A DNA stretch of 60,038 nt, from assembly GCF_003991155.1 (NCBI RefSeq), contig NZ_CP031296.1; one strand, given 5' to 3'. Below are positions 1 through 6,000 of the stretch, piece after piece. Source of the stretch: Escherichia coli. GTDB lineage: Bacteria; Pseudomonadota; Gammaproteobacteria; Enterobacterales; Enterobacteriaceae. Made by a program: the position numbers. The first letter of the stretch is position 1. Each line of letters opens with the position of its first letter.

Positions 1-3000
1 CTAGATAATACTGTTTGTGTGGTTTATTCGATCGTGTGAGTGGGTGTATGCAGTCAAAAAAACTTTTTTGAATATATAAAATTCTGAATTTCTGATTTTG
101 TAAGGTTTTGTATGGGAAACGTCAGTAAAGAAGGGGCTTCACTAGCTGTCCTGAAAACGATTTTGAAGCTGTCACAGATGTGTGCTGAATCAAAAAGGAA
201 ACGAGCCAGGCTTGAACATCGTTGATCGATTGCGCCCATGCTGCTAAATTTGCAGGCAAGTTTTCCGCGATTTGTAAATGCAGAAAACGAGGTGCTGAAA
301 TTTTGTTCAAGAACGTAAGTTTCAGATAAAGAAAACCCCCGTAATCTCGTCTTTTCCAGGGAGCGCAGATTAGCGGGGGTTGACCTCAAGGCAGAGCCTT
401 GAGCTGATAACATTTTATTTCAGGTAATCGCTTACTACCTGAAGTGGAGTTTAATTCCATGAGAAGGAAATATCAACTCTTACAGTGCAAGCTAAGTGCA
501 GCTTGCTGTGATTAGCAAACGTCACTGGTCTGAACTATCACCGGAAGAGCAGGTCCGTTTCTGGCAGGACTACGAAGCGGGTATTGAAAGCTCATTCCTG
601 GTCCCCCTGGAAAACAAAGGCGGAACAACAAAACGTCGCCGGGGTGAACATTCCACTAAGCCAAAGTGTGAGAATCCAGCCTGGTTCCGTCCCGACAACT
701 ATAAGGCGCTGGGCGGACAGTTGGGCCACGCTTACAATCGTCTCGTTAAAAAAGACCCGGTCACTGGTCAGAACACACTCAGAATGCACATGTCGTTGCA
801 TCCATTTTATGTACTGAAACGTCAGAGTGTCGGTCGCAAATATAAATTCCGACCGGAGAAACAGCGGCTGCTTGACGCAATATGGGTTGTACTTGTGAGT
901 TTTTGTGATCGTGGATTGCACACTGTCGGCATGTCTGTCTCCCGCCTGGCAGAAGAAATAAGCCCAAAAGACAGTAAGGGAGACGTGATTCCTGAAACCG
1001 CAGTCACAGTATCGCGCCTTTCCCGTCTGCTGGCAGAGCAGGTTTCCTTTGGCACGTTGGGAACGTCAGAAAAGACGATATGGGACCGTGAATCCCGCCA
1101 GCGACTGCCGAAATACGTCTGGATCACCGAAACTGGCTGGAAAATGCTGGGAGTTGATCTGGTGAAACTTCAGGAACAGCAACGTAAACGCCTTGCAGAA
1201 AGTGAAATCCGTCTGCAATTGATTAAAGAAGGCGTTATCCGCGAGGGCGAAGAAATCTCTGTTCACTCGGCTCGTAAACGCTGGTATGCGCAGCGTTCTC
1301 TCGATGCCATCAAGTCCCGACGTAAGAAAGCAGCGGAGCGCAAACGTGCTAATCGCCTGGCAAAACTGCCGTATGATGAACAGCGAAACGAAATTGCGCG
1401 GTTTATTCTGAAGCGTATGCCGCCGGACGAAGCGTACTGGTGCACTAAAGAAAGATTAGAGCAACTGGTAGCCAGAGATCTACGTCAGCTTGAACTGGCT
1501 CTGACAGCTTCGCCACCCCACTAGTTTAGCTGCCTGATACAATCGGCACTCTCTTCAGCCCCTTCGGGGCTTTTCGTGTTGCCTGCATTTCATGAAATTC
1601 CTCATATTTGACGACCGTTTTTCATTTTGTCCCGCTCTGACAGTTTTTTGATGGCCGCAATAGGGTATCGGAGTAAAAACGCCTTCGGTTATCCACAAAA
1701 ACCCGCAAAGGAATAACTTCAGAAAGCAGCAAACATAGAACATCAAACCCGCAATATATTCTTAACCCCTGTTCTTTAATCCCCTGCGTTGCTTCGCCGC
1801 AGGGAAAATATTTATCTTTGAAACAACTGTGGATAATCACAAAAATGCCTTCGCTTGCAGCGGCTAACGCCGCGCCGCTCAGAATATAAAAGTACCTCCC
1901 ACCGCTTCGCGGCGGGCATACGGATTTCTGCCCAATGAAAAACAAAGCCCCTCCAACCCTCCTACAAAAAAACGCTGCAAATACTCAGCCACAGCGCCCA
2001 ACCCATCACTGAAAAGCGCCGCCGCCCCCGCCCAAAGGGCGGGAACAACATCGCTTTCAATAATGGATGTTGTAACTAAGAAATCTCATCGCTGTCAGCC
2101 TTCTGGCTGGAAGTACCAAATACACGCTCGTAAGCGGCCCTGACGGTCCGCTAACGCGGAGATACGCCCCGACTGCGGGTAAACCCTTGTCGGGACCACT
2201 CCGACCGCGCACAAAAGCTATTTCATGGCTGAAAGCGGGTATGGCTTAGCAGGATGGGGATGGGTAAGGTGAAACCTATCAATCAGTACCGGCTTACGCC
2301 GGGCTTCGGCGGTTTTACTCCAGTAACATATGCAACAACGGAGAGCCGCCTTCCATGCCGCTGGCGCGGCATCAAAAAAGAAAGCCCCCCAATGACGGGG
2401 GAAATAGCGTTTTGATCAAAATAATAATGCTAGTGTGCTTCTTGCGTGCCATTCCAGGCACAAACTAAATTTAACGTTTCGTTAACTACAAAGAAATCCG
2501 ATGAGTTAATCACTTGCGAAATAAAAATCATATAGTAAATTACTATATGATTTTGCGTTGTTTCGGAGAATTAAAAAATGCCTTTGATTGAATACATCAA
2601 CAAGTTCTATCGGGGGAATCAGGCATCGTTCGCCAGGCTGACCGGAGTTCAACCTGCGCAGGTAACACAGTGGATCAACAAAGGATTCATCGTGGTGAAT
2701 CACACACTGTATAGTCCACGCCGAAAGCTGGGAATTTAATTCCTGGTCAATATTTGACATCCTCCACGCCCTGAAGGACGGGGATATAAGGCGCACTGTA
2801 TCCTGTTGTCTGGCAGAAAAAAGAAAGCCCCGTAGTTAATTTTTCATTAACCCACGAGGCGATCCCAATGCTTCAACAACACCAGGATAGACTTTTACCG
2901 CCCTTTACGCAATACCATGTATTTTCAAGTTTCTGGTCGATATATAATGTTGTTGGCGCTTGAGGCTTTCTGCCTCATGGCGAAAAGGTGGTTTGTATCT

Positions 3001-6000
3001 TGTTGTGCGGCAGAAAGAAGAAAGCCCCGTAGTTAATTTTTCATTAACCCACGAGGCGATCCCAATGCTTGAACAACATCAGGATAGCCTCTTACCGCGC
3101 GTTACGCAAGGAGAAGAAGGCCATGAAACTACCGGGAAACGCCCTTATCTGGTGCGTATTAATCGTGTGCTGCACGTTGTTAATATTCACACTCCTGACC
3201 CGGAATCGCCTGTGCGAAATCCGGCTGAAGGACGGATACAGGGAGGTTACGGCAAGCATGGCTTACGAATCCGGCGGTAAGTAGCAACCCGGAGGCGGGC
3301 GAAAGCCCGCCTTTTTGGGGATGATGTGGTTCTGGCATTAAGCGCCTTTACAAAGGGGGTATTCTGTACGGATACCCCCTTTTTCCATGTATTTTCAGGA
3401 TATTAACTGGTGAATATGGTATAATTAGTCAATATGACAGCAATTATTGAGGCGAGTATGCAGCCCAAAAAAACACCCGTGATTGTGGTCAAAAAACGCC
3501 GCGTTCTGGTCATGCCAGAAAATCCTGTGGTGAATGAAAAGCCGCAGGAAGTACAAAAATCAGCAGTTAATGAAAACAAGAAAGTACAGAAGAAAGATGC
3601 TGTAGCAGAGAAAACACGTAAAAAGCAGCCTCAGCCCTGGTATTTGAAAAAACAAATCACTTTTCCCCCAAAATATCCGAAAGAATATTTTGAAAAGTGT
3701 TTCAATAAAGTTCGTGCTGTTTTTCCTGAACTATGGACAGACGAAAAAAAGAACTTGCCCCTGAAAAGCGGGATTCTCCAGGACGTTGAGAAATACCTGG
3801 CGGATAACCCGGATGTGGATCTGACGATTGAAGAGTGGAATTGTGCGGTTCAGGTGATGACGTTCCGGTGGCAATATCTTCAGAATTGTACTGTACCAGG
3901 CGCAACACGTTACGACCTTTACGGGAAACCTGCTGGTACAGTAAAAAAAGCACACGCAACTTATGCGCAACTGGTTCTCGATGCCCGTAAGAAAGCCAGC
4001 GAGAAGAAACAATTAAAACGTAAGGGATAAAGCCCCGAAGGGCTTTATCATTTCAGCCTGGCTGACTGTAGAATCCAGTGATTTTTTCCGTTTTCGTCCA
4101 GGCCGTGTTCGTAAGCTGCAAGAGCCGCTTTCATTATTGCTGTTTTTGTCTGGCCTGTTCGCAGTGCTTCCCGTTCCAGAATATCTTCGTAAACGTCCCC
4201 AAGCCGGACATTGGTCACTTTAGTTGCTCCCGATTTTTTGCGGGTAGCTTCATTGATGAATCGGGCTGTGTCTGCATTGGTTTGTTCTGTTTTTTGTCCT
4301 GGTATTACCGGAGTTTTCAAGTCAAGAGCCATTATATCACCTTTCGTGTGTTACATTAGCTTTACTGTGTAAAGTTAATGATGTAAAGCTGTCGTATTAC
4401 ATCCATTAGGGATTGATGCCTAACTCTTGCGCCAAAAGCTCTATTTGTGCTTTAGCTGTAGAAAGGCTGGATGCGCGACGTACATCATGAACGCCAGCGC
4501 CTTCATTACAGGCCGCTTCAAAAATATCTAAATCTGAAATACGTGTACGAAGTGGCTGTATCCACACCGGGTTCTCCCGGAGTAACTTGTCGAGATCAAT
4601 CGCTGCTTTTCTGTGGCGTGGTTTTGTCGTGTTAATTCTCGTGAAAAGTACCCAGGGTTGCAGGTCTGGATTGATCTGTTGAGCTGTGCGAACTTTTTCT
4701 GTTACATGAGTCAGCGTTTCTGCTTCGAAATCTGAAGACGGCTTAACGAGAGTAAGCAGAATGTCAGCTACAGTTAAGGCACTGCGAAATTCCTTGCTGT
4801 CATGCCCTGGACAGTCAATGATCAGCACTTCACATATTTTTTTCAGGCGCTTAATGACTTCTGATACATCGCCATACTCTTCATAAACAGGAACCGGTAA
4901 TAAGCCATTCTGCTTTCTTTTTTCGTTCCAGCTAAGAATATCATTGTTTTTATCGGTCTTCAGAATGATGACCGTTCGTGAATTATTTACCAGATAAGAA
5001 GCCAGGTTTGTTGCTGTGGTGCTTTTTCCTACACCGCCTTTATCTGATGCGACAAGTAATGCTCTCCCCATAGAAACCTCGGATATACAGTGTAAAGGTT
5101 TATTTGTCTTTACATTGTATTCATTATAGTTACGTTGTAAAGATGTTCGTGTCTTTACAATGTAATTGTTTTTTGCGCTTTACATTGTGTGTATGTTACA
5201 GGGTAACTTTTCAGGATGCGATTTTGCCTGGTGTGTTGTTGCGCCCGTAGCTCGCTGACGCTCACACGCGCAGTACAGCGCCCCGCCCTGCTGCAATGCA
5301 CCAGGACGGCGTAAACTCGCTGGCGCTCGCGCTAACTGCGGCATTCTGCGGCGCAAATCAGCATGATCATGGCCTGTCAGTCCGTTGGGCTTTGCAGGGT
5401 GAAGGGATGGCCCTGTGCATCCTGGTATGTTCGTCAGCGGCTGCGCCGCGCTTCGGGGCGATGTGGCCCCGCTGCTCCCTGGTATTTTCTTTCGCCCCTT
5501 CTATGCCCTGCCGGGCATTGCATGAATGTAAATATTTGTATTTAACGATATTTATTTTAAAGAAAGGAGGAAAAAATACTTGATAATAGGTCAGTTCTGA
5601 CCTATTATAAACACATCGAGAGGGGATGGTCCCCAATCACCAAAGCCGCTCAGCGGCAGGAGCTTAAAAATGGAAAACCACGCCAAATTTGTTGCTACTG
5701 AAATTCTTAATCAGCTTGGTGGAAACCGCTTTATTGCTATGACAGGCGCAAAGAACTTTGCCTGTTTTGATGAAAATGGTGAGTCTGGTCTTTGCTTTCG
5801 TTTACCTTCAAATTTTGCAATGAAGGGAATTAATTTGGTTAAAATCAAATTAACCTTCTCTGATACATACCTGGTGACATTTTCCCGTGTCTGTGGAGCT
5901 ACAGTAAAAGAAATATCAAAATTTGATAATATTTATTGTGATCAGCTTGAATGTTTATTTAATGAACAAACCGGACTTGCAACCAGATTGTAATTTTTAA

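Follow-up and report, generated by a model that had tools for sequence, protein, structure and literature searches.

The hok/sok region of an IncI2 plasmid

The DNA analysed here, a stretch of 60,038 nucleotides (nt) from Escherichia coli (contig NZ_CP031296.1, called the window in what follows), is an IncI2 conjugative plasmid. Between its repA gene (496-1524) and a gene of the ProQ/FinO family (3434-4030) lies a type I toxin-antitoxin region that is made up of an intact hok/sok locus and, upstream, a diverged and toxin-less copy of part of the same locus. The subject of this analysis is that copy: what it derives from, and what it may still encode.

The downstream unit is a complete hok/sok locus. 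Its promoter presents the -10 hexamer TATAAT at 2943-2948, its mRNA begins with GGCGCUU, and its leader matches the Rfam model RF01794 with 98.4 bits at 2954-3125 (gathering score, 59). The hok open reading frame (ORF; 3123-3284) specifies a member of the Pfam Hok/Gef family (PF01848; 58 bits over 3123-3281, cut-off 22) and is overlapped by mok (3065-3280, with its ATG at 3065). In the predicted fold of the entire transcript (z = -6.6), the first eight nt (5' GGCGCUUG) pair with AAGCGCC at 3340-3346; a terminal hairpin (3355-3379) followed by a U-run closes the minimum-energy structure. An intact hok locus with these parts (leader from about 2956, hok at 3123-3284, hairpin at 3355-3384) had been proposed in the original prediction; Rfam, Pfam, the mok overlap and the fold bear it out, and its coordinates were right to a few bases. 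(Two technical notes: RefSeq calls a Hok protein of 40 amino acids starting at 3162, and the full 53-codon ORF from the ATG at 3123 aligns with R1 Hok. RF01794, the "sok" model, represents the entire hok leader, read in the sense direction, and its matches fall on the strand opposite to Sok RNA, as is shown by E. coli K-12 sokX, which is antisense to the model match (L015, 3300-3456).)

A repeat search pairs 2788-2912 with 2985-3109 (125 nt, 89% identical, gap-free, at an offset of 197), and base-by-base comparison confines the true homology to 2797-2912 and 2994-3109 (~105 of 116 positions identical, ~91%); within these limits a block of 53 nt (2821-2873) is 100% identical between the two copies. 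Judged by sequence, the match of the upstream copy to the hok leader is far beyond chance. An ORF scan finds no Hok-like ORF between 2740 and 2955, just a 31-codon remnant of mok. (This remnant was considered as a small protein and rejected: its ATG is ATA in five of nine other sequences of the upstream copy.) The homology ends at 2912, flush with the outer edge of the sok -35 hexamer. On this side a deletion, with its junction at 2912/2913, has removed the mok and hok ORFs and the 3' untranslated region (UTR); on the other side the hok promoter is lost along with ~42 nt at the start of the leader, and the loss adjoins the scar of an insertion sequence (IS). The block that is retained coincides with the sok gene, its right edge lying at the -35 and its left edge ~15 nt past the U-tract (Table 1). 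A diverged copy of ~125 bp of the leader (2791-2916) without a toxin ORF is what had originally been described, and the repeat search and the ORF scan agree with that; the IS scar, the missing first ~42 nt and the coincidence with sok were no part of the description.

Table 1. Features of the hok/sok region, in window coordinates
Feature	Position	Strand	Basis
Left copy of the hok promoter-flank repeat, TTCCTGGTCAATAT	2740-2753	+	alignment to single-copy plasmids
45-bp scar of an IS200/IS605-family (TnpB-type) element	2754-2798	-	comparison with the full IS in E. albertii p2
Probable relic of a second hok/sok unit, homologous to hok mRNA ~+43 to +155	2797-2912	+	repeat search, Rfam, base comparison
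Predicted sok' gene: -35 TTGCGT 2907-2912; 17-nt spacer; -10 TATCCT 2884-2889; start ~2876-2877	2815-2912	-	copy comparison, geometry of K-12 sokX and R1-type parB
Predicted Sok' RNA: 5' tail antisense to the mok start region; hairpin; U-tract	2860-2877; 2828-2859; 2815-2827	-	fold
Truncated mok' ORF, 31 codons	2868-2963	+	ORF scan, relic comparison
Toxin-deletion junction TA, then CCATGTATTTTCA (2915-2927), then right promoter-flank repeat TTTCTGGTCGATAT (2930-2943)	2913-2943	+	repeat search, alignment
Intact hok mRNA (430 nt)	2955-3384	+	Rfam, Pfam, ORFs, fold
Resident sok gene: -35 TTGCGT 3104-3109; -10 TATCCT 3081-3086; start ~3073-3074; hairpin 3025-3056	3012-3109	-	copy comparison, RNA fold
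Third, partial copy of the unit boundary (CCATGTATTTTCA...CTGGTGAATAT...TATAAT)	3385-3428	+	repeat search, Pfam, alignment

Derivation of the upstream copy

Was a fragment of leader duplicated, or an entire locus? The flanks provide the answer. The 13-nt sequence CCATGTATTTTCA is repeated exactly after the upstream copy and after the intact locus (3385-3397). Five IncI2 plasmids (p1081-CTXM, Salmonella diarizonae unnamed2, pZE36, pRM13516 and pJSWP021_3) possess one hok/sok unit each, joined as ...TTCCTGGTCAATAT/ATAATG..., and the window differs from them by exactly 190 extra bases (2754-2943) that are bounded by the TTCCTGGTCAATAT and TTTCTGGTCGATAT copies of the promoter flank. The alignment of 2913-2943 to the intact 3' flank and the single-copy promoter has a shuffle p of 0/2000, and so does the left promoter-flank repeat when it is set against the single-copy upstream region and against its right copy. 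Since both flanks, that of the 3' end and that of the promoter, are present twice, the repeat unit was the whole hok/sok locus and not a piece of its leader.

The 45 bp at the left edge consist of the start of an IS left end with its hairpin, joined directly to the final 13 nt of the right end; the crossover falls inside the similar hairpins of the two ends. A full, TnpB-bearing IS occupies the same site, inside the hok -10, in E. albertii p2 (...CATTAT/IS/ATATTGACCAGG...), and the right-end junction, GGATGTCAA/ATATTGACCAGG, is identical in the two plasmids. The scar motif occurs once in the window, and there is no TnpA or TnpB gene between its ends, where there are just 45 bp: it is a scar, not an element.

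In L018, a metagenomic IncI2 contig, the IS is present in full, together with an upstream unit whose complete leader starts from GGCGCTTGAGG, followed by the intact unit; its toxin deletion, ACGCAA/TACC, is identical to that of the window. Loss of ~53 bp between ATACA and ATCCA would turn an L018-like state into the junction of the window. (In L018, reverse complement, 651-1038, what borders the right end of the IS bears no relation to the usual IncI2 flank and the YdaS-like ORF described below is absent from the locus, which points to further rearrangement on the IS side.) In yet another plasmid, pL9-3, an IS91-family-associated segment truncates the same relic from its left side, at GGCAG. 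Several other candidates did not hold up: 1) pL9-3 seemed to have a relic whose leader was longer and divergent (Rfam, 47.7 bits), and the extra sequence proved in BLAST searches to be the end of a widespread IS91-family-associated segment; 2) pJSWP021_3, a candidate for the relic's intact parent, proved to have the usual single copy, and no intact parent was found in PLSDB with a chimeric query running from the relic-type sok promoter spacer into the hok start (best full-length match, 92%); 3) an apparent triple copy in two records (H99 and H217; two BLAST pieces, span 410) is the normal two-copy form when its sequence is read (L010). A separate observation concerns pAF23 (L004, 301-1228): here 47 bp within the relic are tandemly duplicated, so that the sok' terminator hairpin region is present twice.

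The anatomy of the region, its homologies and these evolutionary intermediates are matters of observation. The explanation that we favour, and hold to be probable, is that the upstream copy descends from a second hok/sok unit whose toxin was lost and of which one apparently complete sok gene remains, probably transcribed. The course of events would have been the following: 1) an IS200/IS605-family element inserted into the -10 of the upstream unit's promoter; 2) later deletions hollowed out the IS, reducing it to the scar, and took away ~42 nt from the start of the hok leader; 3) a separate deletion, starting just past the sok -35 and reaching the far end of the 3' UTR, removed the mok/hok coding region. 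What was left over would be a toxin-less module that is essentially one complete sok gene. A relic of a deleted second hok locus was among three possibilities that the original prediction held out for the copy, and the CCATGTATTTTCA flank repeat, the second promoter flank and the L018 leader support it strongly.

The predicted sok' gene and its possible roles

On the minus strand of the upstream copy, the sequence 7 nt beyond the -10 begins with GUUGAAGCAUUGGGAUCG..., continues into a hairpin and ends with CUUUCUUUUUU. The -35 and -10 hexamers and their 17-nt spacing are identical to those of the resident sok gene; the terminator is intact, and its U-tract is even better than the resident one. 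This geometry is calibrated by annotated SokX of K-12 (TTGCCT-17-TAACAT-7-+1, antisense to the Rfam model match) and recurs in R1-type parB, for which an RNA of ~65 nt is predicted, in agreement with the length of Sok. The predicted Sok' and Sok are identical at 61 of 63 nt: the +4 position of Sok' is G instead of C, and one further base extends its U-tract (U6, against UUCUUU in Sok). The two RNAs have the same fold (-20.4 kcal/mol; z = -3.8 and -4.05), and the duplex with the resident hok target is computed at -112.6 kcal/mol for Sok' versus -119.0 for Sok. When the copies are aligned against the Sok pairing region, a comparison proposed together with the original prediction, the 53-nt core comes out as identical and the 5' tail of Sok' as pairing with the resident mok translation-initiation region with one mismatch. 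A second Sok-like antisense RNA, another of the three original possibilities, is upheld as to structure alone: by sequence the gene looks complete, with the core promoter of its resident counterpart.

Transcription of sok' is likely, since its core promoter is identical to one that must function. It would proceed leftwards from TTGCGT-17-TATCCT and stop at the gene's own hairpin and U-tract, yielding a Sok' RNA of ~63 nt that would join the Sok pool, with two sok genes for each hok gene. Sok acts by preventing translation of mok/hok and by setting off the breakdown of processed hok mRNA (PMC9841398), and an enlarged pool would be expected to do likewise. Sok being short-lived, Sok' should not abolish killing after plasmid loss.

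The relic is widespread. A 261-bp query retrieves 365 PLSDB records at ≥95% identity and a further ~120 at 82% coverage and 83% identity (the two of the latter that were read, pZE36 and pRM13516, are single-copy); a search of complete E. coli genomes gives 173 records at this same threshold of ≥95%. The -35, the -10 and the main stem of sok' are unchanged in 10 of 10 relic sequences. Three different left boundaries (the window type, the IS91-family junction of pL9-3, and L018) and the shared deletion on the right all leave sok' whole, and the left edges lie close beyond the U-tract, at ~15 nt in the window type and ~3 nt in pL9-3.

Could the upstream copy nevertheless be silent, transcriptionally dead or the source of negligible RNA, and persist as a small and harmless passenger linked to a successful backbone? 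This is unlikely, but there are a number of points in its favour, and they weigh against the explanation preferred here. No σ70 site in 2400-3700 passes a consensus scan; that scan also misses the resident sok promoter and the terminators, being too strict for weak-consensus elements, so that it is uninformative and homology to K-12 sokX and R1-type parB was used instead. The spacer differs between sok' and resident sok, and so does the sequence upstream of the -35, which a deletion junction has replaced in the relic; the strengths of the two promoters could differ. With RF01794 the upstream copy scores 28.2 bits (2789-2929; E = 3.6e-4), below the gathering score, and it lacks the model positions for the first ~42 nt and the hok start. 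The model covers the sense leader, so that the test speaks to the leader and not to the sok gene. Among relics, changes are at least as frequent inside sok' as outside. A G->A change at 2870, in the 5' tail (G-U wobble with the target), is present in five of nine other relic copies, and further changes affect the U-tract and the loop or, in pAF23, consist of the 47-bp internal duplication; these have been tolerated. There is no statistical sign of purifying selection on sok' among ten relic copies, a sample that is largely clonal (3-4 independent events); a metagenome scan yielded four contigs, too few for a constraint test. The perfect 53-nt core could stem from ancestral constraint or from gene conversion with the copy 197 bp away. 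Single-copy IncI2 plasmids, moreover, manage without a relic. The evidence on constraint is mixed and allows none to be demonstrated, and the relic's persistence in a common IncI2 lineage may be mostly a matter of inheritance by descent and not of selection. What speaks against silence is that the hexamers and their spacing are those of the resident sok promoter, which must work if the plasmid is to be tolerated, that the terminator with its improved U-tract is in order, and that no variant falls in the -35, the -10 or the main stem.

An improbable reading makes Sok' a selected second antitoxin with a competitive function, whether by neutralising hok mRNA from competing IncI2 plasmids (anti-addiction) or by making the resident hok less costly. 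It draws on a G/C polymorphism (seen in L002-L014 and L018) at the hok target base opposite Sok +4 (3071, corresponding to 2874; mok codon 3, Glu/Gln). In all seven relic-bearing plasmids the intact unit shows G and the relic C, and five of six single-copy plasmids have C. The perfect match of Sok' to the commoner single-copy hok allele is what allows this speculation. The deletions and IS junctions that crowd sok' on both sides (on the right at the -35, on the left ~3-15 nt off the U-tract) without entering it are in line with such a function, as is the fact that the relic-bearing form is the commoner one in PLSDB. Yet one mismatch in a duplex of ~60 bp shifts the predicted energy by ~5%, and resident Sok would probably cross-react; the independent events are few and substitution is not reduced in sok'; and the sixth single-copy plasmid, pRM13516, also has G. 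That Sok' is an actively maintained second antitoxin gene, trimmed to a minimal sok unit by successive deletions and either buffering the cost of hok on the epidemic mcr-1-type IncI2 backbone or providing RNA anti-addiction against C-type rivals after a shift of the resident target to G, is doubtful.

The remaining possibility of the original three, a decoy, would have a sense transcript of the truncated leader titrate Sok and raise hok expression. The relic does retain the complete Sok-complementary region, and there is no obvious terminator between it and the YdaS-like ORF upstream (2578-2739), so that read-through is conceivable. The decoy is not borne out and very improbable all the same: the hok promoter and 5' end of the relic are deleted, the sole -35-like hexamer (TTGACA, 2754-2759, contributed by the IS end) is 25 nt from the nearest TATAAG, a spacing that is not canonical, and raising toxin expression would be costly. 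A recent local duplication of the leader segment by replication slippage, without there ever having been a second complete locus, would suit the 197-bp distance and gap-free alignment of the copies and has next to nothing else to recommend it, for the copies are ~9-11% divergent where intact leaders hardly vary from one IncI2 plasmid to another, the 3' flank and promoter flank of the locus recur after the relic, and the complete 5' leader of the L018 relic contradicts it.

Related systems, plasmid setting and significance

The downstream unit has all the sequence features of R1 hok/sok (parB): Hok/Gef toxin, mok overlap, 5'-3' pairing, terminal hairpin and antisense sok. It differs in being preceded, 197 bp upstream, by a second, toxin-less unit with its own sok gene. 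There is no mention of such a unit for R1 or in the IncI2 papers searched, in which hok/sok figures as a putative single module; pHNSHP45-type plasmids, for example, are described as having a putative hok/sok (PMC8053102). The closest relation of the relic is K-12 sokX (b4701), a sok gene left behind after loss of hok, so that this pattern of decay is already known: K-12 keeps only sokX where 90% of surveyed uropathogenic strains have hok and sokX (PMC12736100). Toxin loss and the geometry from promoter to terminator are common to the two, but sokX is a solitary chromosomal gene that still has the entire hok leader (Rfam, 103.7 bits), whereas the relic of the window is plasmid-borne, is little more than sok, and sits beside a live and nearly identical hok target.

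Two other kinds of system bear comparison. Chromosomal hok loci of K-12 (hokA, hokC and hokE) are said to have been found inactivated by IS elements, reportedly by Pedersen and Gerdes in 1999. There, too, hok is disabled by IS insertion and then decays; in the window, by contrast, the IS is of the IS200/IS605 family and has shrunk to a 45-bp scar, and the toxin ORF is deleted. Orphan antitoxins or anti-addiction modules of type II, such as chromosomal ccd, can neutralise a related toxin encoded elsewhere. Like sok', they are antitoxin genes without a toxin of their own; they specify proteins, whereas the product in the window is a putative antisense RNA.

Bases 2400-3700 of the window are 100% identical (BLAST) to many IncI2 plasmids of ~60 kb, for example pHLJ109-16, in E. 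coli, Klebsiella, Shigella and Salmonella. The ProQ/FinO-family gene (Pfam, 62.5 bits) adjoins hok on its downstream side. Proteins of this family bind antisense RNAs, and by analogy a connection of its product with Sok or Sok' is conceivable. The partial copy of the unit boundary that follows the intact locus now serves as the promoter region of this gene, which in this way has the CCATGTATTTTCA...CTGGTGAATAT motif in common with the hok promoter. The gene matches the published description of PcnR, the copy-number regulator of mcr-1 IncI2 plasmids (PMC8053102).

Some further features of the window lie outside the hok/sok region proper. The 53-codon ORF at 2578-2739 has a weak YdaS/helix-turn-helix-like Pfam match (17 bits, below the cut-off of 30), and just 5' of it is a perfect palindrome (2524-2554; 15-nt arms, 1-nt gap) that may be an operator or a terminator. 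A hairpin-rich repeat of ~430 bp occurs at 5239-5672 and 7236-7670 (93-98% identical), and its final 95 nt recur at 6245-6339; each copy has a small ORF just downstream (starting at 5670, 6341 and 7662), and the repeat may be a regulatory or leader element of the plasmid. In pHLJ109-16, RefSeq annotates tnpA and tnpB of an IS200/IS605 element at 5256-6903; the window ORFs at those coordinates look different, and the window, as judged from these ORFs, probably does not have this insertion.

IncI2 plasmids are the main vehicles of the colistin-resistance gene mcr-1 (PMC8053102). Their maintenance modules are being studied as targets, and the hok/sok region has so far been treated as one putative module, where the common IncI2 lineage has one toxin gene and two potential antitoxin genes. 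The presence of two potential sok genes affects the design and the reading of knock-outs, of curing strategies that turn on antitoxin supply, and of plasmid-competition experiments. Beyond this, the variants make up a natural series (single copy, full IS, IS with intact leader, IS scar, IS91-family truncation) that shows a type I toxin-antitoxin locus decaying toxin-first, with the antitoxin gene left over. Should Sok' turn out to be expressed and to protect, the anti-addiction orphan antitoxins, protein-based so far, would gain an analogue made of RNA.

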